Positions 6,046 through 38,608 are shown, numbered from the stretch's first letter. The stretch is 64,000 nt of DNA from Thermodesulfobacteriota bacterium (GCA_024762675.1 JANTGZ010000001.1:14322-78321), one strand, 5' to 3'. Notes: a model not told the origin generated them from the sequence alone. Numbers and translations are program-made.

Positions 6046-6054
6046 TGAAGTTTG

Positions 6055-10936: not shown

Positions 10937-10946
10937 AAGAAGGGGA

Positions 10947-11552: not shown

Positions 11553-11576
11553 AGCCGATGGAGTTTTGCGGAGTTG

Positions 11577-12410
11577 TCAAGAGTTGGGTAGGGAGGGGAT
11601 AATAAAGACCTCCTCAATAGTGTTGAGATCAAATTCAGGTTTTACATTGATGGTTTGACTTAGTCCATTGTGGCTTTGCGTAGTAGTTACGATGGTGCCG
11701 ACGGTTATTCCCTTGGGAAAGATGTTGTCAAGGCCTGAGGTGATCAGTTGGTCGCCGACTTTTACATCGGCGGTGCGCTGCAGGTAGGCCAGTTCGCAGA
11801 GTTCGCCGCCGGTGCCTTGCAGGGTGCCGCGAATACGATTTCTTTGAATGATGACATCACAAGCACTATTTTGATCTACCAGCAACAGGACTTTGGCTGA
11901 TTGTGGCCCGCAGGCAATGATACGGCCGATAACACCACCGGGGGTGAAGACCGGATTATTTACTTCAAGATCCTGGTTGGATCCGCAGTCGATGATCAAG
12001 ATATGAGAGAGACTGTCGGTCTGGCGTCCGATTACATGGGCTGATATGCCTTGGGCCAGAGTGTCATGTTGTTTTTTGAAATTAAGGAGCTTATGCAGGC
12101 GCAGGTTTTCGAGGCGAGCTTCTTCCAGTTGGGCCAGGCGGCTTTCTGCGATGGCAAGATCTTTTTTCAGTTGAGTATTGATCTCTTTTGTGCCGACAAG
12201 GTTGATGTAGCTGTCAAAAGCTCTGCTGCCGGTGGAAAAGGTCAAATCGATGCACTTTTGGATCGGGTAGGTCATGGTCAAGGCCGCCTTTTCAGCTATG
12301 CTGATCAGGCTGCCTCCTCTTTGTAACCCAAAACTGATGCAGAGGGTAAAAAAAGTAAAAATCAGCGCCAGGCTGAGCAGCCATGGCAGTCGGCGGCTGA
12401 AAGCGGTCAT
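11577..12410 (-). CDS. mreC: rod shape-determining protein MreC
   Basis: N-terminal TM, coiled-coil, MreC beta-domains. Position between mreB and mreD. Confidence 0.88.
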   Translation of the reverse strand: MTAFSRRLPWLLSLALIFTFFTLCISFGLQRGGSLISIAEKAALTMTYPIQKCIDLTFSTGSRAFDSYINLVGTKEINTQLKKDLAIAESRLAQLEEARLENLRLHKLLNFKKQHDTLAQGISAHVIGRQTDSLSHILIIDCGSNQDLEVNNPVFTPGGVIGRIIACGPQSAKVLLLVDQNSACDVIIQRNRIRGTLQGTGGELCELAYLQRTADVKVGDQLITSGLDNIFPKGITVGTIVTTTQSHNGLSQTINVKPEFDLNTIEEVFIIPSLPNS

Positions 12411-12467
12411 GTTAGTCTCGCTCTAATGCGGGAATCACTCCCGCAACCCAAAAATTACTGAAAGGCA

Positions 12468-13502
<1,035 letters not shown>

Positions 13503-15352: not shown

Positions 15353-16312
15353 ATGAATAAAAAGATAACCTTTCTCTTTTTTTTATTGATGTTGCTATTG
15401 GCGGCTTCTTTCTTGCCGAGTTCGATATGGGCTGAAAACGAGGGCTTTGTTTCGGTTTCTCGATTGGATTATGAGATTTTCCACGCCCCGGAAAATCTGC
15501 GGCCCGGACAGGCTCTAGTGGTTGCTTTTCGTTATCGAGGTACAAAACCGGTGGCTGACCAGCAGCCCCTTATGTTAAATTTTATCGATCGGAAATTCTT
15601 TCTCGAACCAGTTGCCGGAGGTTGGCGAGGGGTAGCAGCGGTTCCTTTGGGAACTGTAGCCGGCAGTTATCAATTGTTGATCAAGTTTGATGATGGTGCA
15701 GAACTGGCTTTGCCGATTACTGTACTTGCTCATGACTATGGTGAACAGCGGCTGACGGTTCCAGACGAGATGGCAACTCCGGTACGACCGGAAAATCTGC
15801 AGAAAATCAAACAAGATCGAAAGAGTTTGAGGCTCGCCTATGCTTCCTCCGGCTCCGACCTTCTTCTTGAAAGAGTGGTTCGACCACCTCTTTCTACAAC
15901 TATCACTTCACCTTTTGGTCGGAGACGGTTGCTCAATGGTAAACCAAAATCTCCACATGGTGGAGTTGATTATAAAGCCGCTGTCGGAGTGCCTATAGTT
16001 GCGGCGGCAAAAGGCCGGGTGGTTCTGGCGGAAGAGCTTTATTATAGTGGTAATCTGGTGCTTCTCGATCATGGTCTAGGTATTTTTACACTTTATATGC
16101 ATCTCGATGAGATATCCTGTCGTTGCGGTGATGTTGTTGATTTCGGTCAGATTATCGGGACGGCGGGAAGTAGTGGCCGGGTAACGGGTCCCCATCTGCA
16201 CTGGGGGGTCAAGATTGCCGGAGTTTTCGTCGATCCGCTTCGTTTTGTTACCGATAGTAAACATTTGTTAAGAGTTCCGTGGGAGGGTGAAGATGGCAAA
16301 AGTAAGTTTTGA
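15353..16312 (+). CDS. M23 family metallopeptidase (secreted, LytM-like)
   Basis: Signal peptide. M23 catalytic motifs HGGVDY...LDHGLGIFTLYMHL...GPHLHWGV. Confidence 0.85.
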   Translation: MNKKITFLFFLLMLLLAASFLPSSIWAENEGFVSVSRLDYEIFHAPENLRPGQALVVAFRYRGTKPVADQQPLMLNFIDRKFFLEPVAGGWRGVAAVPLGTVAGSYQLLIKFDDGAELALPITVLAHDYGEQRLTVPDEMATPVRPENLQKIKQDRKSLRLAYASSGSDLLLERVVRPPLSTTITSPFGRRRLLNGKPKSPHGGVDYKAAVGVPIVAAAKGRVVLAEELYYSGNLVLLDHGLGIFTLYMHLDEISCRCGDVVDFGQIIGTAGSSGRVTGPHLHWGVKIAGVFVDPLRFVTDSKHLLRVPWEGEDGKSKF

Positions 16313-19380: not shown

Positions 19381-20048
19381 TGATAAAGCCCAAGCGGGAA
19401 ACCCTGAAGGATCGTCGTCAGCGAGTGCAAGATGTGATTTTGAATTTGTCACGTCTTTATCCTCTGGCTACCTGTGGGCTTGTCTATAACAGCTCCCTGG
19501 AGTTGCTGGTTGCCGTTATCCTGTCAGCCCAGTGTACAGACGTGCGAGTCAACCAGGTGACCCCAGCTCTTTTTGCCCTCTATCCTGATGCTCGAGCTTT
19601 TGCTCAAGCGTCGCGATCAGAGCTCGAAGAGGCGATCCGAAGTACCGGTTTTTTTCGTAACAAGGCGAAAAATATTCAGCTCTGCTGTCAGCAGCTGCTG
19701 GCCCGGCACGATGGCCGGATTCCACCATCCTTAAATGAGCTGGTTAAGCTCCCCGGGATTGGTCGAAAAACCGCCAATGTTGTTTTAGGGGAGATCTATG
19801 GTTTACAGGGGGTCGTTGTCGACACTCACGTTAAGCGCTTAAGTTGTCTGCTGGGTTTAACCAAAAGTGAAGATCCCGTTAAAATTGAACAGCATCTAAT
19901 GAAAGTTGTGCCGGAGATGGCCTGGAATCTCTTTTCTCATCTTTTGATCTATCATGGGCGTAACCTCTGTCCGGCCCGGCGTCCTGGATGTGAAGCTTGT
20001 CCGGTTGTCCGACTCTGTCCGGCTGGTCACAAGAAAGTATTCTCATAA
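19381..20048 (+). CDS. nth: endonuclease III (DNA glycosylase/AP lyase)
   Basis: HhH-GPD motif (LVKLPGIGRKTANVV) and C-terminal 4Fe-4S Cys cluster (CPARRPGCEACPVVRLC). Start taken at ATG 19381. Confidence 0.85.
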
Positions 20049-20575
20049 TGTCGGATTTTACCATTATCGATATTCCAAGCCCCAATTTTGACTCTCGTCC
20101 TCCCGGAGTAACTATCGATCTTGTGGTGATTCATGCGATCAGCCTGCCGCCGGGTAAATTTGGTACGGGGCGGGTAATCGACTTTTTTACCAACTCTCTT
20201 GATTCGGAAGAGGATCCCTATTTCTCTGAAATTAGCGGGCTCAGGGTTTCATCCCACTATTTTATCGAACGTCAGGGTCGGGTTATACGTTTTGTGGATG
20301 ATGAAAAACGGGCCTGGCATGCCGGAATCAGCCGTTTTCAGGGGCGTGATAACTGTAATGACTTTTCTCTCGGCATAGAACTTGAAGGAGATGACTTTAA
20401 TTGTTTTACCGAGGTTCAATATCAACGTTTGAATGAGCTTTTAAAGTCTATAAAAAACCGCTGGCCGGCTGTGACCGGTAATCGAATTGTCGGTCATTGT
20501 CATGTTGCGCCGCAACGAAAGAGTGATCCGGGGCCTTTTTTTGACTGGAAAAGAATAGGAGTAGAGATTGCCTGA
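20048..20575 (+). CDS. ampD: 1,6-anhydro-N-acetylmuramyl-L-alanine amidase
   Basis: Amidase_2 motifs (AWHAGISRFQGRDNCNDFSLGIELEG; HCHVAPQRKSDPGP). ATG overlaps the nth stop. Confidence 0.85.
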   Translation: MSDFTIIDIPSPNFDSRPPGVTIDLVVIHAISLPPGKFGTGRVIDFFTNSLDSEEDPYFSEISGLRVSSHYFIERQGRVIRFVDDEKRAWHAGISRFQGRDNCNDFSLGIELEGDDFNCFTEVQYQRLNELLKSIKNRWPAVTGNRIVGHCHVAPQRKSDPGPFFDWKRIGVEIA

Positions 20576-21575
20576 GAGAGAGTTCAGTCAGCTCTTAATG
20601 GTCGGGGTTAGCGGAGAACGGTTGACAAGGTTTGAACGTTCGGCCTGGCAACGCTTTCCTCCGGGCGGGATCATTCTCTTTGCCCGAAACTGCGTTGATC
20701 CACAAAAAACTAAGGCTTTAGTCGGCGAACTCCAGGAAATCTCAATTGAAACCAGTGGCTTGCCGTTGATTGTGGCAGTGGATCAGGAGGGTGGTCCGGT
20801 TGTTCGTCTTCGTGAGAGTTTTCCCGATTTTCCCGGGGCTGCAACCTTAGGTAAGGATGATGATCTGAAAAAGACCCGGAGTACGGCCAAGGCTCTTGGG
20901 AAAGCTTTGTCTGAGATCGGTATAAATTGCAATTTGGCTCCGGTTGCCGACCTCCTGCAAACCTCAAGCCGAGTCCTGCATAAGCGCTGCTTCGGGGCTG
21001 ACCCGGAACTGGTTTCAGGCCACGTTAAAGCCTATATTGAGGGCCTGCAGAGCAGTGGGGTGGCGGCTTGTGTAAAGCATTTTCCCGGTCATGGAACGGT
21101 CGCTGATGACAGCCACACTATGTTACCGGTCTCACCTTTGCAGAGGTCCGAACTGGAGCCCCATCTTAAACCCTTTGCGGCAGCCATTGTCGCCGGGGTT
21201 AAGATTATGATGGCGGCCCATCTTAAATTTCCCGTAATTGATTCACGCTCGGTGCCGTTTTCATCACTTTTTTTAAATGAAATTGCCCGTCTTGAGATGG
21301 GTTTTTCCGGCCTGATTATATCGGATGATCTTGATATGGCAGCTGTTGCCGGAAGGCCTCTGCCTGAGGTGATGGTCGAGGGATTAAAAGCCGGTCTCGA
21401 TATGGCGTTGTGGGGTCGAAATCTTAAAGCGGTTGCCGACCCCGAGCTGGTGATGGCAGGTTTTGTTAATAAAATTCAAGATTGTGGTCTGACATCCGAG
21501 CTCCTGCAGAGAAAAATAGAGCGCATTCGTCTTTTACGAAAGGCTTTGGAGATGGGGTTGAGTAAGGATGGTTAA
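20568..21575 (+). CDS. nagZ: beta-N-acetylhexosaminidase (GH3)
   Basis: GH3 motifs (KHFPGHG; ISDDLDMAA). Overlaps the ampD stop. Confidence 0.85.
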   Translation: MPEREFSQLLMVGVSGERLTRFERSAWQRFPPGGIILFARNCVDPQKTKALVGELQEISIETSGLPLIVAVDQEGGPVVRLRESFPDFPGAATLGKDDDLKKTRSTAKALGKALSEIGINCNLAPVADLLQTSSRVLHKRCFGADPELVSGHVKAYIEGLQSSGVAACVKHFPGHGTVADDSHTMLPVSPLQRSELEPHLKPFAAAIVAGVKIMMAAHLKFPVIDSRSVPFSSLFLNEIARLEMGFSGLIISDDLDMAAVAGRPLPEVMVEGLKAGLDMALWGRNLKAVADPELVMAGFVNKIQDCGLTSELLQRKIERIRLLRKALEMGLSKDG

Positions 21576-22737
21576 ACTTGGTTTAGAGAGCTTTATTGAG
21601 AAGGCAAAGATACTTCCTGCAGGTTGCCGGGCTGCATTCTTAACCCACCAGGCTGCAGTTGACAGTCGTGGAATCACCTCTTTAGAGCGTGTGCGTCGGG
21701 CCTTTCCCGAGCTTGTGCAGTCGGTTTGGAGTCCGCAGCACGGTTTTTATGGTGATCGCCAGGCTAATATGATCGCCTCTAAGGATTTCTCAGATCCCCT
21801 CTCCGGTTTGCGGGTATGCAGTCTTTATGGTGAAAAGCGACAACCAACACCAGAGATGTTTTCGGGAATTGATCTGATTCTGGTTGATCTCGTAGATGTT
21901 GGTTGCCGTGTCTATACCTATATTTGGACTCTCTATCTTCTACTTGTGGAGGCGGCCGGAGCCGGTGTCAAGGTTGTGATTCTTGATCGCCCCAACCCTT
22001 TAGGCGGAGTGGAGATTGAAGGCAACCTGCCGCGCTCAGATCACAGCTCTTTTGTAGGGCTTTATCCGCTGCCGATGCGCCACGGTATGACGATTGCTGA
22101 ACTGGCTCTCTATTTTAAATATCGAGCCGGTATCGATGTTGAACTTGATATTTTTGAAATCGAAGGTTGGCGGCGGTCATCATATTTTAATGAAACCGGA
22201 CTTTTCTGGGTCTTGCCGTCACCCAATATGCCGACTCCGGCAACGGCTATGGTCTATCCGGGTCAGGTACTGCTCGAGGGAACCAATCTCTCCGAAGGGC
22301 GGGGAACAACTCTGCCCTTTGAGTTGTGTGGGGCTCCGTTTATTGATCCAAGGGCTTTATTGGCGGAGATCGACCAACAAGCTGCAAGCGGATTATTTTT
22401 GCGCCCGACCTGGTTTACACCGACTTTTGATAAGTGGGACGGTGAACTTTGCGGCGGTCTCCAGCTTCATGTTATTGATTCGCAGAAGTTTTCTCCTTAT
22501 CGTTTTACACTGGCGCTGCTTAAAGCTGTGATCAAGCTCTATCCTGATAATTTTGCCTGGTTGGCGCCGCCTTACGAGTATGAGTATGAAAAACTTCCCA
22601 TCGATATCCTGACTGGCGACCCGCTTATCCGTAAGGCTCTTGAAAGTTCAGGCGATCTTGATCATCTTAAGGAGTCCTGGAAAGATAGCCTTGAAGTTTT
22701 TTACGAACAGCGCACTAATGCTATAATCTATCTTTAA
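21568..22737 (+). CDS. namZ: DUF1343-family protein (exo-beta-N-acetylmuramidase NamZ-like)
   Basis: 389 aa. Conserved DUF1343 core (LVDLVDVGCRVYTYIWTL...ILDRPNPLGG). Overlaps the nagZ stop. Confidence 0.7.
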   Translation: MVKLGLESFIEKAKILPAGCRAAFLTHQAAVDSRGITSLERVRRAFPELVQSVWSPQHGFYGDRQANMIASKDFSDPLSGLRVCSLYGEKRQPTPEMFSGIDLILVDLVDVGCRVYTYIWTLYLLLVEAAGAGVKVVILDRPNPLGGVEIEGNLPRSDHSSFVGLYPLPMRHGMTIAELALYFKYRAGIDVELDIFEIEGWRRSSYFNETGLFWVLPSPNMPTPATAMVYPGQVLLEGTNLSEGRGTTLPFELCGAPFIDPRALLAEIDQQAASGLFLRPTWFTPTFDKWDGELCGGLQLHVIDSQKFSPYRFTLALLKAVIKLYPDNFAWLAPPYEYEYEKLPIDILTGDPLIRKALESSGDLDHLKESWKDSLEVFYEQRTNAIIYL

Positions 22738-22843
22738 CGGCTGGAAGTTTTTTTTTAGGGTTTTGGTTTTTTCGGACACCCTGTTTGACAAGTTCTACTA
22801 TCTTTCTTATAATTCTATGCGAAATATATTTTGGGGAGGGAAA

Positions 22844-23341
22844 ATGAATAATCAGTATAAAGTTATTTCGGTTCTATTGTTGTTTGTTGTTGCCGGTGTT
22901 ATTTTTTCCGGCTGTGCCGGTTGTGCCGGTTATGAGCGCGGTGCTCGGGTAACCCCGGTTTTTGTCGCGGCTTCCGGAGCTAAAGTCTACGTTCATCCGC
23001 CGAAAGATCAAACCCTTTCCGGCTGGATGGAGACCTATATCGATATTGAGCTTGAACATTTAGGCTTTAAAATTGTCGAAGACCCCCATGCCAGTGATCT
23101 GCTGGCCTACTACTCTTACTCCTACGATTGGGAGGAACCCTCCTATATCCGTGATTTTTTGATTGTTTTCAAGCCCTATCCGGGTGACGACCTGGAGCTG
23201 CTGGCCTCGGCCAGCTGCTATCATCGTTGTTCCTGTTCATTTACTCAGGCCGGCGGCCAGGAAGTGCATGAAGCTTTTACGGCCCTGCGTGAAGAGCTCA
23301 ATGCGGCCTCGAAAACCAAGACCAAGGATTCATGGCAGTGA
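22844..23341 (+). CDS. hypothetical lipoprotein
   Basis: Start at ATG 22844 gives the signal plus lipobox ...VIFSGCAGCAG. No family recognised. Confidence 0.5.
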   Translation: MNNQYKVISVLLLFVVAGVIFSGCAGCAGYERGARVTPVFVAASGAKVYVHPPKDQTLSGWMETYIDIELEHLGFKIVEDPHASDLLAYYSYSYDWEEPSYIRDFLIVFKPYPGDDLELLASASCYHRCSCSFTQAGGQEVHEAFTALREELNAASKTKTKDSWQ

Positions 23342-24252
23342 GAAAAATGACGGAATCTGGTACCGGAGCCCGCGGTTTCACTCTGGTTGAACTTCTCTTA
23401 GCCCTTGGGATTGCCGGAATAATTGCCGCATTTTCCATTTCGATTTCAAGCTCCATCAGCAATTTAAGTAAACAGGCCATGACCAAAGCTCGCATGGGGA
23501 CGATTGCGGCAAAAGCCAGGCAGTATTATCGCTCACATAAACTTCAGGTTCCTGCAGCCACCACTCCGACCGATTCGATACCTGTAGATTCGAGCAACCT
23601 TAATTTGGAGCAGAAGTATCGTCTTGATGGTTGGGGAAAGTATCTTTACTACCGAGTCTCTCCGGCAATTAATGGTATAAAAGTTAATGGCAGCAGCACC
23701 GGGGTCGGGGCAATAATTATCAGTGGTGGCCCAAATCAGCAGATTGATATCGTTAATCATACGACGGCCTCTAGCCTGCTGGTGGCCGGGGACGATCTTA
23801 TAGTCGGAGTAAACTTCAATCAGGAAGCGACCGAGATTGTACTTGAAGATCTACAACTTTTACAGAGTAAGGTTGAGGCCTTTGATGCTCAGTTTGAGGG
23901 AGTAGATAATGATAGTTCCGGTGGTATCGATGAGGATGGCTGTATCGCTGACAGTGGTACCGGATGTCCTCCAACAGGTGATAATGATCCAAACTGTGGT
24001 CGCGCAACTCTTGATAATATAACCTTTTATGACTGCGGTAGTGGCGCCGGAGTCAATGAAACTGCTTCAGCCGCAGCCTTTATGACTTATCTATACAATC
24101 TTTCCAGTCACTATATTGCCGACTCCTGGGGCAACCCCTATCAATGGAGTGATCCGGCAGATCCTTTGAAACATCACAAGTTCTGGTCCTATGGTCCGGA
24201 TGGTTCTAGTGGAACGGTTGCCGGTGATACTGCCGACGACATAGTTTTTTGA
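23332..24252 (+). CDS. prepilin-type N-terminal cleavage/methylation domain protein (large pilin/pseudopilin-like)
   Basis: Canonical class III signal ...GARGFTLVELLLALGIAGIIAAF (G|FTLVE). The true start may be ATG 23347. About 300 aa. Confidence 0.75.
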   Translation: MAVRKMTESGTGARGFTLVELLLALGIAGIIAAFSISISSSISNLSKQAMTKARMGTIAAKARQYYRSHKLQVPAATTPTDSIPVDSSNLNLEQKYRLDGWGKYLYYRVSPAINGIKVNGSSTGVGAIIISGGPNQQIDIVNHTTASSLLVAGDDLIVGVNFNQEATEIVLEDLQLLQSKVEAFDAQFEGVDNDSSGGIDEDGCIADSGTGCPPTGDNDPNCGRATLDNITFYDCGSGAGVNETASAAAFMTYLYNLSSHYIADSWGNPYQWSDPADPLKHHKFWSYGPDGSSGTVAGDTADDIVF

Positions 24253-24327
24253 CCACGAAATAATCAAAAAAATTTGATTGGTGTTTGTTGCAGTGTCTCG
24301 TGCTGTTTAAAACAGGTGGAGTTGTTC

Positions 24328-25905
24328 GTGAAATGTAGTAAAGCGGCCGCCGATAACCGTGGATTTTCTCTTTTATTGGTTCTGATCATGATGTCAGCGG
24401 TAACCATTGGTCTGGTTATGTTGACGAGGAGTGCTTTCAAAGGGGAGAATTTTAGTAAAAATGAAGTGACCGTTGCCCGAATGAACGTGGTTGCTAAAGC
24501 TTTGGGACAATACTATCTCGGTCATCGAAATCTTCCAGGTCCAGGCGCAAATTCGCGGGTTCCAGTGGCGCGGTTGTCTCTGCAGGCAAAGTACGGCCTT
24601 GACGGTTGGGGCAAGTTTTTGCACTATAATTATGATTCTATCTCCAGTTTGCGAGGTATCAGTGTTGACGGTAAAGCGGTGGCCGCTGTTTTGGCCAGTA
24701 GCGGTTCCAATCAGGAGATTGAGGCGGCGACTCGACCCGGAAATGGAACTATCTATCTTGATGTCGGTAATGACGATATTCTCATGCCGGTTACCTTGCA
24801 ATCTGAGGCTGTAGCTCTGGCAACCACAACCCTGCACAACCTGGCCCGCAAAACCTGTTCGTATATCTGTGTCAATGGTGAGTCGGTTCTCGATGATGAT
24901 GATCTTGATGCGACGGATGCAATGGGGGCTCTGGATGGAGATGGTTTTACAGGTGGATTGTCACAGGTCGGTTTATTTCTGGAATTTTCTTTAAATACTG
25001 CGACTTATGCCATTGATCCCTGGGGTAACAGCTATCAATGGTTGGGGGATAGTTCATTACCGGCCAACTCTTTTCGTTCATTGGGACCGGATGGCGTGGT
25101 CAGTGGTGATGATATTATTGTTGGTGCCCGCACGACCTTGGTAGCGTGCGGTTGCTCATTCCCCCCTCCGTTGAGTCTGTTCACCTTTGAAGCTAATCAA
25201 ATTCAAGGAAATATAATAACTGTGAAGACTCCATATGGTGAAAGTATTGGGACATTGGAAGGTGATACATCCGTTGTGGCCTATCAAACGGGGGCCGATT
25301 ATGATGGCCCTCCTACTTCATCTGCCGGAGAGTACGCAGTCTATTTTGATGGCAACCATGATTATATTATAATGGATCAGCCCCCCTATTTTGTTCTTGA
25401 CGAAGATTTCACCTTGTCGGCTTGGTTTAAGACAACCGGCGTGTTGAATCAATATGCGAAAGTGATTTCTCGAAGAATTGGAAGTTATAAATACTATTTT
25501 CTCGGTTCCAAAGGTAACAGTGGCACAACCAGATGTGATAACGGAGGAGTGGCGCATCCCTATGGCGGTGTTTTGGGAGGCCAAGATGATTATAATATGG
25601 GTGGTCATCAGACTAGCACCAGAACGATTATCAGTATGCCTTGCGGTGAGTGGCATCATGTAGCGGTGGTTTTTGATCACGAACTTGCAGGATCATCACT
25701 CTCTATCTATTATGACGGTATACTGCAGGAGATTCGAAGTGGTTTGCCGGTGTCAGCTCCGAATGATGAAGATATCAAATTAACTATCGGAGCTGACAGT
25801 GGTGGAGGGAGTGGTTTTTTTCAGGGCTGGATCGATAATGCTGCACTTTTTGATGAGGCTTTGACCGGAGAACAGATTATTTCAGTGATGGATCGGAGTG
25901 AATAG
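24328..25905 (+). CDS. pilin-like N-terminal domain protein with C-terminal LamG/concanavalin-A-like lectin domain
   Basis: RBS AGGTGGAG followed by GTG 24328. N-terminus RGFSLLLVLIMMSAV is pilin-like but lacks Glu+5. Shares motifs with the upstream gene (KYGLDGWGKFLHY; DPWGNSYQW). C-terminus has LamG-like motifs (FTLSAWFKT...WHHVAVVFD...LSIYYDG). Confidence 0.65.
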   Translation: MKCSKAAADNRGFSLLLVLIMMSAVTIGLVMLTRSAFKGENFSKNEVTVARMNVVAKALGQYYLGHRNLPGPGANSRVPVARLSLQAKYGLDGWGKFLHYNYDSISSLRGISVDGKAVAAVLASSGSNQEIEAATRPGNGTIYLDVGNDDILMPVTLQSEAVALATTTLHNLARKTCSYICVNGESVLDDDDLDATDAMGALDGDGFTGGLSQVGLFLEFSLNTATYAIDPWGNSYQWLGDSSLPANSFRSLGPDGVVSGDDIIVGARTTLVACGCSFPPPLSLFTFEANQIQGNIITVKTPYGESIGTLEGDTSVVAYQTGADYDGPPTSSAGEYAVYFDGNHDYIIMDQPPYFVLDEDFTLSAWFKTTGVLNQYAKVISRRIGSYKYYFLGSKGNSGTTRCDNGGVAHPYGGVLGGQDDYNMGGHQTSTRTIISMPCGEWHHVAVVFDHELAGSSLSIYYDGILQEIRSGLPVSAPNDEDIKLTIGADSGGGSGFFQGWIDNAALFDEALTGEQIISVMDRSE

Positions 25906-28438: not shown

Positions 28439-29596
28439 TCAGCGTCCTAAACTAAGTCTTTGCCCGATCATTATTTTTGAGCTATTAAGCTTATTGATTT
28501 TTTTCAGTCTCGTGATCGGGATCTGAAAGCGACGGCTGATAGCCCCTAAAGTGTCTCCGTTTTTAACGGTGTAATATGGTTGGCGGTAATTTTTTTTATC
28601 GGGTAATGGTTTTAATGTCTTAAAAACTGTTGCCATTTTATGACTGGAGCCTTTTGGGAGGAGCAGATTGAACCTGCCGCTGGGTAATTGTTTGCTGATC
28701 AGGTGGGGGTTAAGTTTTTTCAGGGTGTGATAGGTGGTTCCTAGCTGCAGGGCGAAATCGGTCAGCAAAAATTCATTTTTCAGCTTTAATGAAACCGGCT
28801 CTCCGGTCAAGGGTTGATAATATTGGTCGGCTGAGACGTTGAAACCATAAATTTCCGGATTAGTGAGGATTATTTTAATGGCTGCCAGGCGATATAGGTA
28901 GCGTTCGCTCTCCTGGGGTAGAGAGAGGTGGTAGTAATCGCTGGATTTCTGTTCATCCATGGCGCTACTGACCCTCTGTTCTCCGCAATTATAGGCTGCT
29001 AAAGCCAGGGACCAGTGTGAAAATTTTTCTTTTAAAAAGGAGAGATAAGAGAGAGCTGAGCGGGTTGCAGCGAGAAGGTCAAGTCGTTCATCGATGGTGG
29101 TAGTGATGCGCAGGCCCTGACGGCGACCGGTATGTTTCATGAACTGCCAGAGTCCGGCGGCCCCGGCCCGGGAATGGATATCTACAATCAGTGAACTTTC
29201 AGCAACCGGCAGATATTTCAGATCATCAGGCAGGTCGGCGGCCTTTAGCTCTTTTGCAAAAAAAGGGAGGTATCGGGAACTGCGTTTAAGCCACATTTCA
29301 ACTTGAGCGCGATTATGAACTGCAATCGTAAATTCACGGTCAAGCATTTCACGGCAGTGACGCTCACTCAACGGCAGAGGTTCACCGCAGAATGAGAGGG
29401 TTTTCGGTATCTTGAAGCTGGGAAAGATTTGGCCGGCGTTTTTATGTGGTAGGGATGGTTGGTTTTCAGGCAGGGCCGCAAGCGGTGTTGCCTGAATCAA
29501 GAAGATCCCGAGGGCAAAGAATATAATATGTTTGATTTTATATGGTTTTTTGTTGTACATATCAGCATTTTTAATGTTTTTTCCGGTATTCGTCAA
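28439..29596 (-). CDS. mltD: membrane-bound lytic murein transglycosylase D-like (SLT domain + LysM)
   Basis: SLT motifs (ESSLIVD...AGAAGLWQF...AYNCGEQRV). C-terminal LysM (YTVKNGDTLGAISRRFQIPITRLKKINKL). Confidence 0.8.
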   Translation of the reverse strand: MTNTGKNIKNADMYNKKPYKIKHIIFFALGIFLIQATPLAALPENQPSLPHKNAGQIFPSFKIPKTLSFCGEPLPLSERHCREMLDREFTIAVHNRAQVEMWLKRSSRYLPFFAKELKAADLPDDLKYLPVAESSLIVDIHSRAGAAGLWQFMKHTGRRQGLRITTTIDERLDLLAATRSALSYLSFLKEKFSHWSLALAAYNCGEQRVSSAMDEQKSSDYYHLSLPQESERYLYRLAAIKIILTNPEIYGFNVSADQYYQPLTGEPVSLKLKNEFLLTDFALQLGTTYHTLKKLNPHLISKQLPSGRFNLLLPKGSSHKMATVFKTLKPLPDKKNYRQPYYTVKNGDTLGAISRRFQIPITRLKKINKLNSSKIMIGQRLSLGR

Positions 29597-29608
29597 GTTT
29601 GAAAAAAG

Positions 29609-30325
29609 ATGTTTCTGAAAAGCCGAAAAAAGAAAAAATCCAGATCCTGGCGCAGTCGTTTTTTGATTTTGTGTCTTTTTGTGGTTCTGCTGACGGCATT
29701 GCAGGTTTTTATTTTTGGTTTTATAAAACCGCCCTTAACTATTCCTGTTGCCCGGGCCTGGATTGCCTATGGATTTAAGCAGGAAAATTATCCACAACCT
29801 CGTCAGTGGGTTGAGCTTGAAGGTTTTTCACCACATTTACGGCGGGCTGTGCTAGCCTCTGAAGATCAGCGTTTTTTACGTCATCACGGTTTTGATTTTA
29901 TTGAACTTGGACAGGCTCTGCGGTCTCTGCATGAGGGAGGTGCTTTGCGTGGGGCCAGTACCATCTCTATGCAGACGGCCCGGACCATGTTTTTATGGCC
30001 GGCCCGTAGTTGGTGGCGGAAGTTCGGTGAAGCTTACTATACGTTGTGGCTGGAACTGCTCTGGAGTAAAGAGAAAATTCTTGAATTCTATTTAAACAGT
30101 GTTGACTGGGGACCCGGAATCTTTGGCGCAGAAGCTGCATCCTTGAAATACTTCAATTGTCATGCCCTCTACCTTGATGCCCGGCAGGCAGCTTTGCTGG
30201 CTGCGGTACTTCCGGGACCTCACCTTTGGCGGCCGGACAGGCCGACTGAAGCTGTCATGCGCCGGGTCGAAAGGATCCAACAAGAGATGGAAAAAATGCC
30301 TCTGGTAGAAAATGGGAAATCTTAG
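29609..30325 (+). CDS. mtgA: monofunctional biosynthetic peptidoglycan glycosyltransferase
   Basis: GT51 motifs (ASEDQRFLRHHGFD; ISMQTAR; TLWLELLWSKEKILEFYLN). Confidence 0.88.
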   Translation: MFLKSRKKKKSRSWRSRFLILCLFVVLLTALQVFIFGFIKPPLTIPVARAWIAYGFKQENYPQPRQWVELEGFSPHLRRAVLASEDQRFLRHHGFDFIELGQALRSLHEGGALRGASTISMQTARTMFLWPARSWWRKFGEAYYTLWLELLWSKEKILEFYLNSVDWGPGIFGAEAASLKYFNCHALYLDARQAALLAAVLPGPHLWRPDRPTEAVMRRVERIQQEMEKMPLVENGKS

Positions 30326-30489: not shown

Positions 30490-31278
30490 ATGGGTTTTTT
30501 GAAGAATCTCAAGTTTTGGCATAGGGACTCATCCTACTTGCCTTCGGTTGACGAAAATCTTGTTTCAACCGAGTTGCTTGAAGAAGAGTTTTCGGGTGAC
30601 GGTCGTGAACTTCGTGATCATGGGTCTGGAAAAGCTCTTTATCAGAGTGGGGAAGGCCGGGTTTTTCTGCTTGGACTGCTACTCAGTGTTGTTTTTGTTG
30701 TTCTGATCACCTACTCTCTGGCAATTGATATAAAAGCCGGGCAGACCCTCTTGTTGGCCTTTGTGGCCCATACTTTAGGTGGTAGGGCTGCTGGTATCGG
30801 GCTCTGTATTGCCTTTGAGTTTTCAACCTGGGTTACGATAGCTTACAATATGTTTCTTGAAATATTGATTGTTTGTTACTGTTATTCGCTTTTTGTTTTC
30901 TCATTTAAAAATTATCTCAATTGTAAATGGCTCACAATTGCTTCAAAAAATGCTGAAAAACAAGCTCTTAAACATAAAAATGTCGTCGCTCGTTACGGCT
31001 GGCTGGGGATCTTTGCTTTTGTTATGATTCCACTGCCGATTACGGGCCCGGCGGCGGGGTCAATTATTGCCTATTTTCTAAAGTTCAGTATTAAGCGTAA
31101 CTTCGCTGCGGTATTTTCCGGGACTTTGGCATCAATTGTTATCTGGACCTTTTTCTTTGACTATCTCGACCGCCATATTGCAATCTTTAAGTATGTAGTG
31201 GTTGGGGCGCTTTTAATTGTCTTTATCTACTATTTTAAGACTCTTAAGAGATGGTTTACGCAAGAGATAGAGGAGTGA
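30490..31278 (+). CDS. polytopic membrane protein (COG2426 small-multidrug-export-like family) with N-terminal soluble extension
   Basis: Several TM helices. IPLPITGPAAGSIIAYFLK motif resembles the COG2426 family. Assignment tentative. Confidence 0.45.
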   Translation: MGFLKNLKFWHRDSSYLPSVDENLVSTELLEEEFSGDGRELRDHGSGKALYQSGEGRVFLLGLLLSVVFVVLITYSLAIDIKAGQTLLLAFVAHTLGGRAAGIGLCIAFEFSTWVTIAYNMFLEILIVCYCYSLFVFSFKNYLNCKWLTIASKNAEKQALKHKNVVARYGWLGIFAFVMIPLPITGPAAGSIIAYFLKFSIKRNFAAVFSGTLASIVIWTFFFDYLDRHIAIFKYVVVGALLIVFIYYFKTLKRWFTQEIEE

Positions 31279-31332
31279 CGGTTTTTTGCATTAATATCAA
31301 AAGTAATTTTTATACCTTGATGGAGGGCTCTG

Positions 31333-31611
31333 ATGGAAACAAGATTGGCACTTAAAGGTGATGTTGCAAACGTTGAAACCTGGGATGAATTTTCACAAGA
31401 CCTTACGGCTGCAACTGATGCCGGGGTGGGCAAACTGGTTCTCGATATGGAAAGGGTAACTTATCTCAATTCGAGCGCTCTCGGATCTATTGTGAGTGCT
31501 CAGAGAAAGGTTGCTGATCGGAATGGTGAAATGGTTTTGGTTAATGTTTCAAAAAAGTTGCTCCAGTTTTTTGAGCTCTATAATCTGACGGAAATTCTGA
31601 CGATCGAATAG
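31333..31611 (+). CDS. STAS-domain anti-sigma-factor antagonist (SpoIIAA-like)
   Basis: 92 aa STAS fold (VLDMERVTYLNSSALGSIVSAQRK...LYNLTEIL). Confidence 0.75.
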   Translation: METRLALKGDVANVETWDEFSQDLTAATDAGVGKLVLDMERVTYLNSSALGSIVSAQRKVADRNGEMVLVNVSKKLLQFFELYNLTEILTIE

Positions 31612-31727
31612 CCTGTTGTAAAATATTCCGGGCACTTATTGCAGCATTCGATGTTGTGTAGTGCCCGCAATCTTTTCTCTATACTCTTCTCCTGTTATCA
31701 CATGTCGGGAAAATCTCGTTCTTTCGT

Positions 31728-32564
31728 TTAAAACAGTTCCGATTTTAAGTATTCCTTCACTTCACTGAGACTTTCAACGATTAAATCACGTTTTTTGGGG
31801 AGTTCCGTTGGGCTCAATTCCAGGGTGACGGCACCTTCGTAGTTGCGCCCCTTGAGCATATAGAGGAAACGGGTTAATGGTAGGATCCCGCGCCCCGGAA
31901 AGAGGTGCTCCCGGCCGTGGCCGTAATCACTGAAATGGATATTTTTAATTCGACCGGTAACCAGAAGGCGTTGGAATTCACCGAGGAAGTTGGGGTTGTG
32001 AGAACCTATATGGGTCGTATCAAAGGTCATGAAAAGGTTATGCTTTTCGATGAATTCAAGCATATCTTCCGATTTTCTAAGAATGTTAGGGTTAAAGCGA
32101 ATACGGTTTCCGACATAGGGCATGTTTTCAAGGGTGACGATGACTTTGCTGTCTTTTACCAGGGTCTGGTAGTCTTTAACTTTATGGAACCAGCGACGGA
32201 AGGCGAATTCGGGAGGGAACCAAAAAGGGGGGTGAAAATTGACTAGCGGAATCTCAAAATCTCTCGCCAACTCAATACATCTAATGAGTGACTTTCCGCT
32301 GTGCCCCCAGCCGTGAAGTTTGAAGAAAGGGGCATGGATTGAGAGTATCGGACAGAGTGGAAGCAACTTCTCAATAATTTTGTGAGGGTTGCCACTCTCG
32401 AAAAGAGCGTTGATGATTAATTCGACCCCGTCATAACCACTCTCAGAAGCGATCTCGAAGATCTCTGAAAGTTTCCTCGTGTAGAGGGTTCCGGCGGAGA
32501 GGACAACTGCTCGGCGCGGGGCGATGGTCCGAGGCGGAAGGTTGGTTGTAGATTGCGAATTCAT
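31728..32564 (-). CDS. sugar phosphate isomerase/epimerase (xylose-isomerase-like TIM barrel)
   Basis: AP endonuclease 2 / TIM-barrel family features. 278 aa. Confidence 0.6.
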   Translation of the reverse strand: MNSQSTTNLPPRTIAPRRAVVLSAGTLYTRKLSEIFEIASESGYDGVELIINALFESGNPHKIIEKLLPLCPILSIHAPFFKLHGWGHSGKSLIRCIELARDFEIPLVNFHPPFWFPPEFAFRRWFHKVKDYQTLVKDSKVIVTLENMPYVGNRIRFNPNILRKSEDMLEFIEKHNLFMTFDTTHIGSHNPNFLGEFQRLLVTGRIKNIHFSDYGHGREHLFPGRGILPLTRFLYMLKGRNYEGAVTLELSPTELPKKRDLIVESLSEVKEYLKSELF

Positions 32565-32729
32565 GGATATTTTTAAACAGGGTTAACTGTTGAATATTTA
32601 CCTTATAGTTGTTAGGGAGAGGTATTAATCTGAGCATAAATCTTTTGATTGATGAATATCCTCTCATTTATAATAACAAGAGTAGCAGGGAATTAAAACC
32701 AAAATCTTTAAAAATTAATCTACTTTACC

Positions 32730-33656
32730 ATGGGCAAGGTTATTACAACAATTATTCCGATTTTCATGCTGATTATGTTGGGAGCAGGGGCGCGACGTTT
32801 CGGTTTTATGAAGGCCGATTTTATTGCTGCAGCCAATCGTTTGGTTTTTTATCTGGCCATTCCGGCCCTGGTCTTTCGGGCCTTGACAAAAGCTTCATTG
32901 CGTTCAGAGTTTGATCCCTGGTCGGTGATCATGATGGTCATCGCAGTGCTCTTGGTTGTTGTGTTTACCGTATTTTATAATCGAAGTCGAAAAGTTGTTG
33001 ACGGGCCGCTACAGGGAACCTTTGCTCAGGCGGCAATCCATGGAAATCTCGGCTATATCGGCCTGGCGGTCGCCTTTTATTATCTCGATGAGAGTGGGTT
33101 TGCTCGGGCAAGTATGATGGTCGGTTTTTTGATGATTTTGCAGAATCTTTTAGGGGTTGTTTTACTGCAATATTATTGTTGTGAAAAATCAATTTCCCGT
33201 AGAGGCCGGGATCTGCTCGCCCCGGTACTACTTAATCCAGTTATCCTCGCCGCCTTATCTGGAATTGTTTTTAATTTAAGTACTCTGCCGATGCCGCAGA
33301 TAATCGATCGTTTTTTGATGATTCTAAGCGGTTTAGCTCTGCCTATGGGGCTTTTGCTGATTGGTGCATCGATCTCCTTTGCATTGCTTAGGCAGTGGCT
33401 GCCACAGGCTGCATTAGTCGCTTTGTTCAAACTTTTCTTGCTGCCGGCGGTCGGTTTACTGTTCTTCCGTTTAGCTGGTGTTGACGCCCAAACCTTTACT
33501 CCTGGGTTGATTCTGTTGGCCGCACCGACCGCGACTCTGACTTTTGTTATGGCCCGGGAGATGGGTGGGCATGTTGATTTGGCAGTCGCCTCTATCTCTT
33601 TAACGACGATCCTTTCGGCTTTCAGTTACGCTTTGTGGCTGGGCTTGTTGAATTGA
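32730..33656 (+). CDS. AEC (auxin efflux carrier) family transporter
   Basis: 308 aa, ~10 TM. N-terminal IIPIFMLIMLGAGARRFGF typical of AEC/malate-permease family. Confidence 0.8.
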   Translation: MGKVITTIIPIFMLIMLGAGARRFGFMKADFIAAANRLVFYLAIPALVFRALTKASLRSEFDPWSVIMMVIAVLLVVVFTVFYNRSRKVVDGPLQGTFAQAAIHGNLGYIGLAVAFYYLDESGFARASMMVGFLMILQNLLGVVLLQYYCCEKSISRRGRDLLAPVLLNPVILAALSGIVFNLSTLPMPQIIDRFLMILSGLALPMGLLLIGASISFALLRQWLPQAALVALFKLFLLPAVGLLFFRLAGVDAQTFTPGLILLAAPTATLTFVMAREMGGHVDLAVASISLTTILSAFSYALWLGLLN

Positions 33657-33678
33657 TGGAGATCGTCGGCCTCAGGCC

Positions 33679-34527
33679 TTAGGGGAAAAAGTTTTTTATA
33701 ACTTTGCTGAACGGCCCGGGATGGCCGTTAGCGATTGTCGAGTCGTCGATTTTTACGACCGGCAGGAGATCCACGGTTGAACTGGTGATAAAGACCTCGT
33801 CCGCTTTAAGAGTTTCCTGTAGAGTGCACTCCCTCTCAATCTGTTTGATACCATGTATGGCCGCTTGCTGCAGAATATAGCTTCGGGTGATGCCGTTCAA
33901 GATATACTGGTCAGCTTGAGGTGTGTAGAGGGTTTTATTCTTGATAAAAAAAATATTGCCGGCCGTACCTTCGTGTATCAGACCTTCTTCGGTGACAAAG
34001 AGAGCTTCCTGACATCCGCTCTCAACAGCCCTCTGTTTCATCATGATATTGGGCAGCAGGGAGATACTTTTTATGTCACAGCGGCTCCAGCGGATTTCAG
34101 GTACGGTGATTATAGAGACCCCTTGGGCTAGTTGTGGGTCATATTCAGGGTGCGGTCTAAATGTCATTGTCAGGTTGGCCCGGAGTTTTGCAGAGTAGTT
34201 ATGGCGTCGCGGTTCGATACCTCGGGTTATCTGGACATAGACCATGGTTTCGGTGAAGCCGGCCTTTCTGATACCGGTTTCGATGATTTCGGAAAGTTCG
34301 GGTAATGACGCGGGCATCTCTAAAATAATGCCGTCGGCACTTCGCTGTAACCTCTCGAGATGTTCTTTGATGAGGAAGGGTTTGCCGTTGCGTGTGACAA
34401 TTACTTCGTATATACCGTCAGCGAAGAGATAGCCGCGGTCATTTATTGGTATAAAGGCCTTCTCCAAGGGTATAAAATTATTATTGATGTAGGCAATTTC
34501 CGGCATTCTCGTGTTTCTCCTATTCAT
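33679..34527 (-). CDS. class IV aminotransferase (branched-chain / D-amino-acid aminotransferase or aminodeoxychorismate-lyase family)
   Basis: PLP fold-type IV motifs (DRGYLFADGIYEV...ERLQRSA; TRGIEPR). Confidence 0.8.
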   Translation of the reverse strand: MNRRNTRMPEIAYINNNFIPLEKAFIPINDRGYLFADGIYEVIVTRNGKPFLIKEHLERLQRSADGIILEMPASLPELSEIIETGIRKAGFTETMVYVQITRGIEPRRHNYSAKLRANLTMTFRPHPEYDPQLAQGVSIITVPEIRWSRCDIKSISLLPNIMMKQRAVESGCQEALFVTEEGLIHEGTAGNIFFIKNKTLYTPQADQYILNGITRSYILQQAAIHGIKQIERECTLQETLKADEVFITSSTVDLLPVVKIDDSTIANGHPGPFSKVIKNFFP

Positions 34528-35291
34528 TTGTCAGGCTTGTTTCCCGTTCTGAGGCCTGGTCGCAGGCTGTTCCAATAGATTCTGGCCTTCTCATTTCTAC
34601 TGTTGATAACCTTGTCCAGCCGGGCAAGGGTACTCTGTCGGCAAGCTTCATCCTCTCTCTCCTCGAGAAGCTGAATTTCATCTTCGATTAATTCCACCGC
34701 TCGCTCAAGGGGGTTGGGGTCGGCAATATTAGAGGGGAGCTTTTTTTGACCGAGCTCTTCAAATAGTTTTGCTGTTTCACAGTTCAGAACTCTCTTTTTT
34801 TCGACAATAAGCGGATTTTTTTCACTATCATTGAGGATTACCAGAGCGCTTTCCATGGCTTCAGTGTAGTCTTGAGCAATCAGGCAGGTAAAGGGTAGCA
34901 GGTGAAAAAGGCGGCCAATTTTAACACTTAGCTTTAAAAATGGTGAGAGGCCATAAAAGATAGCCGCCAGCATCTGGTTTCGGCTTTTCAATTCATTTAT
35001 AACATATCGACGAGTATCAAGTGAGAAGTTTTTGATTTCAGTATAATTTATAATGTGAATGTAGGGGCGATTCTGAAAGTATTGATCAATAATCTGAGTC
35101 GTGAAATGCATGAGGCTCTGGGCATCATGTAAGGTGGGTTTGCCGAAACTATGAGTCAAGAGAATCTGTTCACCGATAATGTCGGCGGAGATTTTATACT
35201 CATTACCAAAATCTATTCTATTCCATTCCGGCTTGTTGAGAATGGTTAGCTTGGTGACCGGGCAGGTATAGGTGTTGCGGGATTCACTCAT
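34524..35291 (-). CDS. hypothetical protein, translationally coupled upstream of the class IV aminotransferase
   Basis: 255-aa ORF whose stop overlaps the aminotransferase start (ATGA). No recognisable family. Confidence 0.5.
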   Translation of the reverse strand: MSESRNTYTCPVTKLTILNKPEWNRIDFGNEYKISADIIGEQILLTHSFGKPTLHDAQSLMHFTTQIIDQYFQNRPYIHIINYTEIKNFSLDTRRYVINELKSRNQMLAAIFYGLSPFLKLSVKIGRLFHLLPFTCLIAQDYTEAMESALVILNDSEKNPLIVEKKRVLNCETAKLFEELGQKKLPSNIADPNPLERAVELIEDEIQLLEEREDEACRQSTLARLDKVINSRNEKARIYWNSLRPGLRTGNKPDK

Positions 35292-35519
35292 GGATGATTT
35301 CTAAGCATAACGAAGAGTTGGATGAAATTGGCACTCTCAGGTAGTTTCCTGAGCCCGGGGAGGATGGCTCAGGAAATGATATATTTAGTGAGAGTCTATA
35401 AGGTGTGAGGGCTTGTAAAGTCAAGTTTTTATTGATAATTGTAACAGTGTCTGCGACTGAAAAATCCAGTCGCAGACACTATCGCAGTGAGGAGGCGGGG
35501 TGTTTGGGCGTCTGCTTGA

Positions 35520-37127: not shown

Positions 37128-37284
37128 GTTGTTTCCTCTTTAGTTTTTTTGTAACATTTAGGTTCCGTAATCGTATTGTCTCGATGTGGGGACATACCTC
37201 CAGGCCGGGCTTTAGCCCGTGACAGGTTGAGTTGTGTCCCCAGTAGAAGAGGGTGAAGCAAAGTTTACAGCTATCTGCTGTAAC

Positions 37285-38562: not shown

Positions 38563-38608
38563 TTTATCTCCCTTAGATCAGGTTTTGTTGTTTTGATATT
38601 GAACTCTT

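Follow-up and report, generated by a model that had tools for sequence, protein, structure and literature searches.

We describe a three-gene locus in a 64,000-nucleotide stretch of a Thermodesulfobacteriota bacterium genome (JANTGZ010000001.1:14322-78321; hereafter the window, with positions counted from its first nucleotide). At 22844-25905 on the plus strand lie three open reading frames (ORFs) in the same orientation, encoding a 165-aa lipoprotein, a 306-aa pilin-like protein (pilin1) and a 525-aa pilin-like protein (pilin2). Pilin1 has the canonical signal of a type IV prepilin. Pilin2 is its paralogue, has lost the glutamate at mature position 5 (Glu5) in a conserved manner, retains the glycine that precedes the processing site (Gly-1), and ends in a LamG module. 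We favor, with moderate confidence in the model as a whole, a reading in which these genes form an operon for a lipoprotein and two filament subunits, pilin2 being a tip adhesin cap, pilin1 the subunit beneath it, and the assembly machine being encoded elsewhere.

Pilin1, a GspG-like prepilin with two lobes

The original prediction, made from the DNA by itself, had assigned to the first of the two proteins a canonical prepilin signal, G/FTLVE (here and below a slash marks the processing site), and this is borne out by two profiles that score above their cut-offs, PF07963 N_methyl (24.1 bits, cut-off 21.2) and TIGR02532 (24.6 bits, cut-off 16.3). A word-index search recovered 45 pilin1 homologues, all with G/F[TSA]L[VLI]E, and in the alignment of 25 of them G15, F16, L18 and E20 (mature Glu5) are invariant, every sequence keeping G-F-x-L-x-E. 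Near the C-terminus (residues 258-297) PF08334 T2SSG scores 26.1 bits (gathering score 21), and the GspG profile TIGR01710 aligns along positions 1-131 of its 134 with residues 14-141, at 40.4 bits, below the equivalog cut-off of 88.85. Judged by these scores, pilin1 is GspG-like in motif and not a GspG equivalog.

Two regions of pilin1, lobe 1 (LDGWGKYLYY...SGGPNQ...GDDLIV) and lobe 2 (ADSWGNPYQW...SYGPDG...ADDIVF), form an internal repeat, as detected by hhalign between halves of the family alignment (E 2e-5, probability 77%), and each pilin therefore bears two GspG-like lobes. Lobe 1 contains the invariant columns E93, R97, D99, W101, G102, S131, G133 and Q136. In the Asp/Cys-rich loop between the lobes N193, D200, E201, D219, P220, G223 and T226 are nearly invariant and L227 is invariant; this loop is possibly disulfide-bonded and possibly a Ca2+-binding site, the latter suggested by its pattern of Asp residues. 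An AlphaFold2 (AF2) model built on the 25-sequence alignment, with a mean predicted local distance difference test score (pLDDT) of 77, consists of a 52-residue alpha1 helix (18-69), a beta-sheet lobe, a second long helix (163-187), the Asp/Cys-rich loop at low confidence (pLDDT 42-59) and a second small lobe. Among its Foldseek matches in the PDB the only sensible ones are type IV pilins (CofA, TcpA and PilE) and GspG, of which the first two have probabilities of 1.00-0.99 and E-values of 7e-3 and 3e-2, and a profile search of PDB sequences returned chains of geopilin, PilE, TcpA, GspG and MshA.

Pilin2, a paralogue without Glu5

The two proteins had been taken for tandem paralogues with shared internal motifs, and BLASTP agrees (28% identity over 300 aa, E 2e-23): the whole of pilin1 aligns on pilin2 residues 2-261, with both of the motifs originally quoted (QxKYxLDGWGKxLxY and DxWGNxYQW) inside the alignment. 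The pilin2 family is smaller, with 8 homologues in a word-index search, 6 of them full length; a second such search, with a profile that included distant pilin2-type proteins, gained only generic LamG proteins, the pilin2 family staying small there. In the AF2 model of pilin2 (pLDDT 68.6) two helices (11-38 and 44-66) and strands up to about residue 266 reproduce the layout of pilin1. TIGR01710 scores 24.5 bits, below its cut-off, and residues 228-264 match GspG entries of the PDB at E 0.06-0.15. At the N-terminus (NRG/FSLLLVLIMM) neither PF07963 nor TIGR02532 matches at E<=1, and the features of a prepilin are seen by eye: a leader that is short and basic, then Gly-1, Phe+1 and a hydrophobic stretch of about 20 residues. 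The segment RG/FSLLLVL resembles the GspK-type pattern RG/VALLxVL. The predicted membership of pilin2 in the type IV pilin superfamily rests on its homology to pilin1.

This second signal had been called degenerate. That description holds insofar as there is no Glu5 and no N_methyl match, but not in the sense of decay: across 12 aligned homologues, down to about 23% identity, the glycine (G12, equivalent to Gly-1) never varies, and position 5 holds L, V, T, A or F but no acidic residue; a LamG-less protein of L030 adds a further case. Close homologues all read [RH]G/F[AS]LL[LV]V, and the more distant N-termini are given in Table 1. The K subunit of the HIJK tip complex and PilA of Streptococcus sanguinis likewise lack Glu5; they enter first and cap the filament, with no subunit above them whose charge would need to be neutralised (PMC9934059). 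Because pilin2 has the pattern of these subunits, the retention of Gly-1 together with the conserved loss of Glu5 argues for its processing and its location at the tip, and not for decay of the signal.

The LamG/concanavalin-like domain predicted at the C-terminus of pilin2 is found by profile and by fold. PF13385 Laminin_G_3 matches with E 5.8e-20 and 72.4 bits (cut-off 27.6) over positions 1-150 of 151, and in the AF2 model a beta-sandwich starts at about residue 283, with beta-strands over 283-508. Foldseek returned 252 PDB matches to it at E<=1e-3, headed by the carbohydrate-binding domain 4 of AbnA (E 1.5e-9), the lectin-like subdomain of botulinum and tetanus neurotoxin Hc, and S. sanguinis PilC (7oa7, E 2.4e-8); the module may bind glycans. 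TafC (NF052521), described in the literature as a subunit of Tat-dependent haloarchaeal fimbriae, was rejected as the family of pilin2, since it scores 42.9 bits, a tenth of its cut-off of 410, and its match is confined to LamG and reflects the shared domain only. LamG is fused to the Glu5-less paralogue in the related loci L007, L021 (two copies) and L023 and is absent from L020, L022 and L030, so it is an exchangeable add-on; the variable lectin-type C-terminal modules include one or two LamG, or LamG with GLUG. The large size of both proteins (about 300 and 525 aa) had been read as a sign of minor-pilin or tip-adhesin roles, which the profile, structural and comparative tests support.

Relatives encode the pilins beside an MSHA-like machine

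With one genome taken per species, a scan located 18 related loci. They come from Desulfobacterota-type or loosely labelled delta/Pseudomonadota metagenome-assembled genomes (MAGs) and from 'Candidatus Tharpella sp.' (89% identity), the closest named relative of the window, with the exception of a weak match of 26% identity in a Terriglobales MAG. Tharpella is the proposed type genus of the candidate phylum Tharpellota, from Auka vent sediments (PMC9213671). In L003, L004, L007, L008, L014, L015, L016, L018, L020, L022, L024 and L030 the pilin family adjoins a type IV filament machine composed of a PilM/N-like protein of about 480 aa, a PilO-like protein, a small protein, a secretin, a TPR protein, a lipoprotein, an ATPase, a GspF/PilC platform protein and three to four tandem pilins of 221-268 aa; in L007 genes of the pilin1 type and of the LamG-pilin2 type stand directly upstream of it. 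The secretin is closest to MshL (234.9 bits, below the cut-off of 250.2) and the ATPase to PilB (541.9 bits, below 675.65), and the ATPase carries an MshE-type MshEN motif for binding cyclic di-GMP (c-di-GMP) that scores above its cut-off (54.4 bits, cut-off 38). We would describe this machine as resembling that of the mannose-sensitive haemagglutinin (MSHA) pilus.

The same evidence bears on a different reading, in which the pilins are pseudopilins of an endopilus like that of the type II secretion system (T2SS), a short periplasmic piston, and LamG recognises secreted substrates or the secretin vestibule and has no part in adhesion. GspG is indeed the sole specific pilin family that the pair resembles (PF08334 above cut-off, TIGR01710 near full length, GspG chains in the PDB), but the scores to GspG, GspE and GspF are all far under their equivalog cut-offs. 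A Glu5-less cap is a hallmark of GspK (PMC9934059, PMC8179133), yet no profile match to T2SSK, GspH/I/J or GspL/M was found. The platform protein of the relatives is best described as GspF and one protein of their clusters weakly matches GspC_delta (E 0.0015), whereas the secretin is best described as MshL and the ATPase as PilB with the MshE-type c-di-GMP motif, and the gene order (I-J-K-L-N-E-G-like) resembles that of MSHA in Vibrio. No PilT-like retraction ATPase was seen in the relatives' clusters, as would suit a piston; the variable lectin-type modules, on the other hand, suit adhesins more than the conserved tip of a piston. On balance we consider a T2SS-like endopilus quite unlikely.

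The machine is not found beside the window's own pilins. When the 64 kb were searched by tblastn with the relatives' ATPase, platform, secretin, PilM/N-like, PilO-like and TPR proteins, only the two pilins were matched (prepilin peptidase was not among the queries), and Pfam scans of 20 other ORFs of the window and a synteny table yielded no type IV filament genes; for the ORFs at 30490-41721 and 56879-63905 the coverage came from tblastn alone, apart from those that the synteny table also included. The claim that the pair is not adjacent to pilus-assembly genes is therefore upheld for the window. Detachment of the pair from the machine, together with a position 3' of ampD-nagZ-namZ, is seen only in the Tharpella-like lineage.

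Several further genes were observed at these loci. A conserved four-gene module accompanies the pilin family and the MSHA-like machine at many loci of Desulfobacterota (L003, 10909-14489; also L017, L020, L021, L022, L024, L025 and L030). It encodes an ABC ATPase, two membrane proteins with no Pfam match and an ExeA/MshM-like AAA ATPase, which in NCBIfam is closest, though below cut-off, to TIGR03015 (PEP-CTERM-associated ATPase); an ABC transporter within a type IV filament locus is unusual. A third type of paralogue, of 370-495 aa and with Ala at -1 (..RA/F[ST]LLE), occurs at L019 (3560-4915), L022 (3857-5344) and L017 (9986-11107) and adjoins pilin1-type genes in some loci; its copy in L022 passes the Pfam N_methyl profile. 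Immediately 5' of the pilin1/LamG-pilin2 pair and the machine in L007 (6985-9783) is a gene for a 932-aa protein with a PQQ-like beta-propeller and several CarboxypepD_reg domains, a possible PilY1-like, non-pilin partner at the tip.

A proposed model for a filament capped by pilin2

We hypothesize that the operon makes an envelope lipoprotein and two subunits of an MSHA/T2SS-like type IV filament. In each pilin the hydrophobic helix at the N-terminus would mediate insertion into the inner membrane, and a prepilin peptidase whose gene lies elsewhere would cut behind the conserved Gly. Lacking Glu5, pilin2 could not neutralise the N-terminus of a subunit above it, and for this reason would be the first to enter the filament and would stay at its tip, as do GspK and other K-type caps, with the LamG module exposed to a glycan or other surface ligand. 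Pilin1 would sit directly beneath, its Glu5 paired with the N-terminus of pilin2 and its two-lobed head homologous to that of the cap, and would link the cap to the rest of the filament, which would be built by an MSHA-like machine encoded outside the window. The data show the gene structure, the pilin and LamG assignments, the paralogy, the conserved absence of Glu5 with Gly-1 kept, the link to filament machines in relatives and the promoter; we infer from them the processing, the tip position, the contact of pilin1 with pilin2, the binding of a glycan and any part played by the lipoprotein.

It is important to note that several observations weigh against this model. Pilin2 fails the N_methyl profile and reaches only 16.1 bits with T2SSG, under the gathering score of 21; the Foldseek E-values for the pilin1 fold are weak, the best being 7e-3; and both AF2 models are of moderate quality (pLDDT 77 for pilin1 and 68.6 for pilin2), with low-confidence loops. 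LamG domains bind proteins as well as glycans. No type IV filament assembly gene was found in the 64 kb by the searches above, whose queries did not include prepilin peptidase, and the Tharpella-like lineage keeps the three genes stably among peptidoglycan genes and not among pilus genes.

The place of pilin1 in the filament could also be a different one, namely that of the major subunit of an unusually thick filament of its own, with pilin2 as the dedicated cap. A perfect consensus promoter (see below) suggests high expression; pilin1-type genes are the most consistently present members of the family and often lie directly 5' of the mshI-like assembly operon (L014, L015, L016 and L018); the best Foldseek matches, CofA and TcpA, are major type IVb pilins; and major pilin genes are often unlinked from assembly genes. 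In Vibrio MSHA, however, it is the structural genes mshBACD that occupy the position after the platform gene, and in the relatives the three to four tandem pilins of 221-268 aa directly 3' of the platform gene are the better candidates for major pilins. Moreover, with 300 aa, two lobes and a disordered Asp/Cys loop, pilin1 greatly exceeds in size every solved major pilin that it matches. A major role for pilin1 is unlikely, if the least so of the alternatives considered here, and we retain the model in which it links the cap to the filament.

Transcription, the lipoprotein and the peptidoglycan neighborhood

From a reading of the DNA, the most plausible start of the lipoprotein gene is ATG 22844, with GGGGAGGG upstream as ribosome-binding site (RBS), and that of pilin2 is GTG 24328, with AGGTGGAG upstream, which gives 525 aa and an end at 25905 and is where, by equivalence, the database homologue P0001 begins. 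For pilin1 we prefer ATG 23332 (306 aa, end at 24252) over the alternatives GTG 23338, the start used in database protein P0009, and ATG 23347. The choice matters for the claim that the stop of the lipoprotein gene (TGA 23339-23341) overlaps the start of pilin1, which is correct for ATG 23332 (10 nt) and GTG 23338 (4 nt) and incorrect for ATG 23347 (a 5-nt gap); the wider description of the two genes as coupled is fair under any of the three. In the Tharpella sp. contig they are separated by 4 nt.

Upstream of the lipoprotein gene is a sigma-70-type promoter that matches the consensus at 12 of 12 positions, the only such match in the window, where shuffled sequences lead one to expect 0.02. 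L009 and the Tharpella sp. contig (L001/L010) have it unchanged, and in L028 it reads TTGACA-17-TATAAC. The intergenic gaps within the trio are short, and no terminator-like site occurs in them or 3' of the pilin2 stop; two weak terminator-like matches, a total at chance level, both fall inside the coding sequences. Lipoprotein, pilin1 and pilin2 probably constitute a single transcription unit with its own strong sigma-70 promoter, and this forms part of the model to which we commit ourselves. Because the identities of the trio to its orthologues in L010 and L028 (70-93%) are in the same range as those of NagZ and NamZ, the trio is, by this measure, under ordinary purifying selection. Decay to pseudogenes was ruled out, the ORFs being intact and their conservation in five related contigs housekeeping-like.

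By inspection of its sequence the lipoprotein has a lipobox, MNNQYKVISVLLLFVVAGVIFSG/C fitting the pattern [LVI][ASTG][GA]C, and Cys24 is invariant in 7 homologues. It matches no Pfam or NCBIfam family at E<=1 and no PDB sequence in a profile search. When the full set of 1.84 billion cluster representatives was scanned with HMMER, 3 relatives emerged, all small lipoproteins. Its gene is present 5' of pilin1 in L009, L010, L011, L028 and L029, at 75-88% identity, and was not found at the pilin loci of lineages outside the Tharpella-like group; because it is absent there, it is no general partner of the pilin family. As far as these searches reach, it is a lineage-restricted orphan. Its identification with the lipoprotein of the MSHA-like clusters (153 aa in L003, 177 aa in L007) was rejected, with no match by tblastn and an hhalign probability of 18% over 12 columns.

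The window, L009, L001/L010, L011, L028 and L029 share the order nth-ampD-nagZ-namZ-lipoprotein-pilin1-pilin2, down to 54% identity in pilin1. Around it in the window (767-13502, minus strand; 15353-16312; 20046-22737; 28439-30325) are cell-wall genes for uppP/bacA, rodA, PBP2, mreB, probable mreD and mreC (not scanned), an M23 peptidase, ampD-nagZ-namZ, an SLT-LysM lytic transglycosylase and mtgA; the Tharpella-like contigs L001, L028 and L029 show synteny across this entire arrangement. Small MazE-type antitoxin/DUF2283 genes are inserted among namZ, the lipoprotein gene and pilin1 in L011 (5105-5890) and L029 (8150-8374 and 9626-9844), and because of these toxin-antitoxin-like insertions the junctions of the locus can be said to tolerate insertion. 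That the trio belongs to the ampD-nagZ-namZ operon is weakened both by them and by the trio's own promoter. In L028, a relative of 69% identity, an additional gene for an SLT lytic transglycosylase with TPR repeats (11653-12636) lies on the same strand directly 3' of the LamG pilin gene; its product could help the filament to pass by remodelling peptidoglycan, or the placement could be a coincidence.

One could suppose from this setting that the Tharpella-like lineage has recruited the pair and the orphan lipoprotein to an envelope role independent of any filament, the pilins remaining anchored in the inner membrane with LamG on the glycan strands of peptidoglycan and linked in function to AmpD-NagZ-NamZ recycling. 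Such a role would account for the conserved order, for the wealth of peptidoglycan genes in the region (mreB, PBP2, rodA, M23 peptidase, SLT-LysM, mtgA, and the extra SLT-TPR gene after pilin2 in L028), for the restriction of the lipoprotein to this lineage and for a 64-kb window in which no filament machine was found. Yet the trio has its own promoter and is parted from namZ in L011 and L029, and so does not form one operon with the recycling genes; AmpD and NagZ, moreover, are cytoplasmic and have no obvious need of a periplasmic lectin. The invariant Gly-1 of pilin2 and the intact class III signal of pilin1, Glu5 included, speak of continued selection for peptidase processing and polymerisation, and outside this lineage the family is always associated with type IV filament machines. 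We regard co-option without a filament as highly improbable. Slightly less so, and still very doubtful, is a combined reading in which the pair would represent an undescribed class of double-lobed, GspG-derived pilins of Desulfobacterota and Tharpellota, with a Glu5-less cap that itself bears interchangeable lectin modules, that in Tharpellota has been uncoupled from the MSHA-like machine and joined to an orphan lipoprotein in a neighborhood of peptidoglycan synthesis and recycling genes, and acts there as a glycan-binding endopilus of the periplasm or cell wall instead of an external adhesive pilus. The filament with pilin2 as its tip adhesin is still the reading that we prefer.

Table 1. Features of the lipoprotein-pilin1-pilin2 locus (window coordinates) and N-termini of distant pilin2-type proteins; a slash marks the processing site
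Feature	Position or locus	Strand	Basis or sequence
Sigma-70-type promoter, TTGACA-17-TATAAT	22785-22813	+	perfect match, 31 nt 5' of lipoprotein ATG
Lipoprotein gene, 165 aa; signal peptide and lipobox FSG/C, Cys24 at 22913-22915	22844-23341	+	ORF and RBS from sequence
Pilin1, 306-aa canonical type IV prepilin/pseudopilin-like protein	23332-24252	+	profiles, homologues, AF2
Pilin1 class III signal peptide/N-methylation motif, ..ARG/FTLVELLLALGIAGIIAAF, Glu5 present	23368-23433	+	Pfam N_methyl, residues 13-34; regular-expression match at 23374
Pilin1 GspG-like lobe 1, LNLEQKYRLDGWGKYLYY...SGGPNQ...GDDLIV	23593-23802	+	within TIGR01710 alignment; repeat with lobe 2
Pilin1 Asp/Cys-rich loop, GVDNDSSGGIDEDGC...GCPPTGDNDPNCGRATLD, 4 Cys	23893-24066	+	motif conserved across family
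Pilin1 GspG-like lobe 2, YIADSWGNPYQW...HHKFWSYGPDG...ADDIVF	24088-24246	+	PF08334 match; GspG chain 5wda profile match; repeat with lobe 1
Pilin2, 525-aa pilin1 paralogue with Glu5-less class III-like signal and C-terminal LamG module	24328-25905	+	BLASTP, Pfam
Pilin2 pilin module, alpha1 helix and lobes LDGWGKFLHY.. and IDPWGNSYQW..	24328-25146	+	end-to-end alignment with pilin1
Pilin2 class III-like signal, ..DNRG/FSLLLVLIMMSAVTIGLVM, Gly-1 present, +5 Leu at 24376-24378	24361-24423	+	regular-expression match at 24361
Pilin2 LamG/concanavalin A-like jelly-roll module, Pfam core 25348-25878	25174-25902	+	PF13385, AF2, Foldseek
Distant pilin2-type N-terminus	L007		G/ITLVA
Distant pilin2-type N-terminus	L021		G/YSLVT
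Distant pilin2-type N-terminus	L023		G/FSLIT
Distant pilin2-type N-terminus	L022		G/ISLLL
Distant pilin2-type N-terminus	L020		G/MALIF
Distant pilin2-type N-terminus (LamG-less)	L030		G/SALLL

Other genes of the window

Away from the trio, multihaem cytochromes are encoded at 51350-52126 (minus strand), 54203-55573 and 56058-56759 (both plus strand), one of them containing an MtrC/MtrF-like domain II/IV as well as seven Paired_CXXCH_1 stretches. This cluster, which may be an extracellular electron-transfer module, has on its flanks genes for a PAS histidine kinase (49362-51281) and for sigma-54 activators (43074-44492 and 52704-54116). An 857-aa protein with seven FG-GAP_2 repeats (E 4e-93), encoded at 46589-49162 on the minus strand, is a large protein of the beta-propeller type and probably located at the surface.

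Significance

Modular pilins are one route by which bacteria diversify the binding of type IV filaments. Surveys based on N_methyl signatures would miss subunits of the pilin2 type, and such proteins are consequently probably under-counted. As a cap with its adaptor, the pilin pair would offer a concrete case for nucleation of filaments by a tip complex in the absence of a recognisable HIJK set, and it is one of few leads to the surface structures of the uncultured Tharpella-like lineage of hydrothermal sediments. No current concept is overturned, and we expect these findings to be useful, rather than surprising, to specialists in type IV filaments.

Comparison with known systems

The closest parallel in concept to pilin2 is PilC of S. 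sanguinis, a modular minor pilin alongside PilA and PilB that likewise joins a concanavalin A-like/LamG lectin to a pilin module and is predicted to be at the tip (PDB 7oa7; PMC9934059, PMC8179133); the tip is where modular pilins that bear lectins are located (PMC8179133). The pilC gene shares an operon with other minor pilin genes, one of which encodes a protein without Glu5, in likeness to the trio. However, the pilin parts are not homologous in sequence, PilC has an additional Ig-like module where pilin2 has a large, two-lobed pilin module, and Glu5 is present in the lectin-bearing PilC of S. sanguinis, the separate small PilA being the one without it, whereas pilin2 combines the loss of Glu5 with the lectin. 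S. sanguinis is also a monoderm, and the host of the window a diderm of Desulfobacterota/Tharpellota-like affiliation.

GspK of T2SS and its K-type counterparts in the type IVa pilus (T4aP), PilX/PilK, are similar to pilin2 in their class III-like signal with Gly-1 and without Glu5, in being enlarged by an added domain, and in their proposed role as first-in tip cap (PMC9934059, PMC8179133). Pilin2 nevertheless matches neither T2SSK nor PilX_N (Pfam and NCBIfam, E<=1), so that in these terms only the absence of Glu5 is common to both; the added domain of GspK is an alpha-domain inserted in the beta-sheet, that of pilin2 a C-terminal LamG; and pilin2 has no adjacent H, I and J partners, its nearest paralogue being a GspG-like pilin.

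Pilin1, for its part, recalls GspG (PF08334, TIGR01710; PDB 5wda, 1t92 and 3gn9) in its N-terminal helix and in the C-terminal motif DPWGNPYxY...SxGxDG...D, but is twice the size, with the lobe duplicated and a loop of about 55 residues, rich in Asp and Cys, between the copies, and the machines beside such pilins in relatives look MSHA-like. Vibrio MSHA (mshIJKLMNEGF/mshBACDOPQ) has its parts in the same order as the relatives' cluster, from PilM/N-like to platform and tandem pilins; an ExeA/MshM-like AAA ATPase lies close to that cluster. In Vibrio, large accessory pilin-like proteins and the LamG-containing MshQ follow the structural pilins; a literature search for MshQ and LamG returned unrelated material only. 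Unlike MSHA, the relatives' clusters reach no equivalog threshold (MshL and PilB fall below) and have an ABC transporter module inserted; pilin1 and pilin2 match no MshO, MshP or MshQ profile; and the pair in the window is unlinked from any msh-like cluster, with no msh assembly genes detected by tblastn in the 64 kb.

Taken together, the design is a lineage-specific variant of the known theme of modular pilins and not a new kind of system. The variant differs in uniting cap and lectin in one subunit, in its duplicated GspG-like scaffold, in its confinement to Desulfobacterota- and Tharpellota-like genomes and, in the lineage of the window, in its separation from the machine and its association with an orphan lipoprotein.

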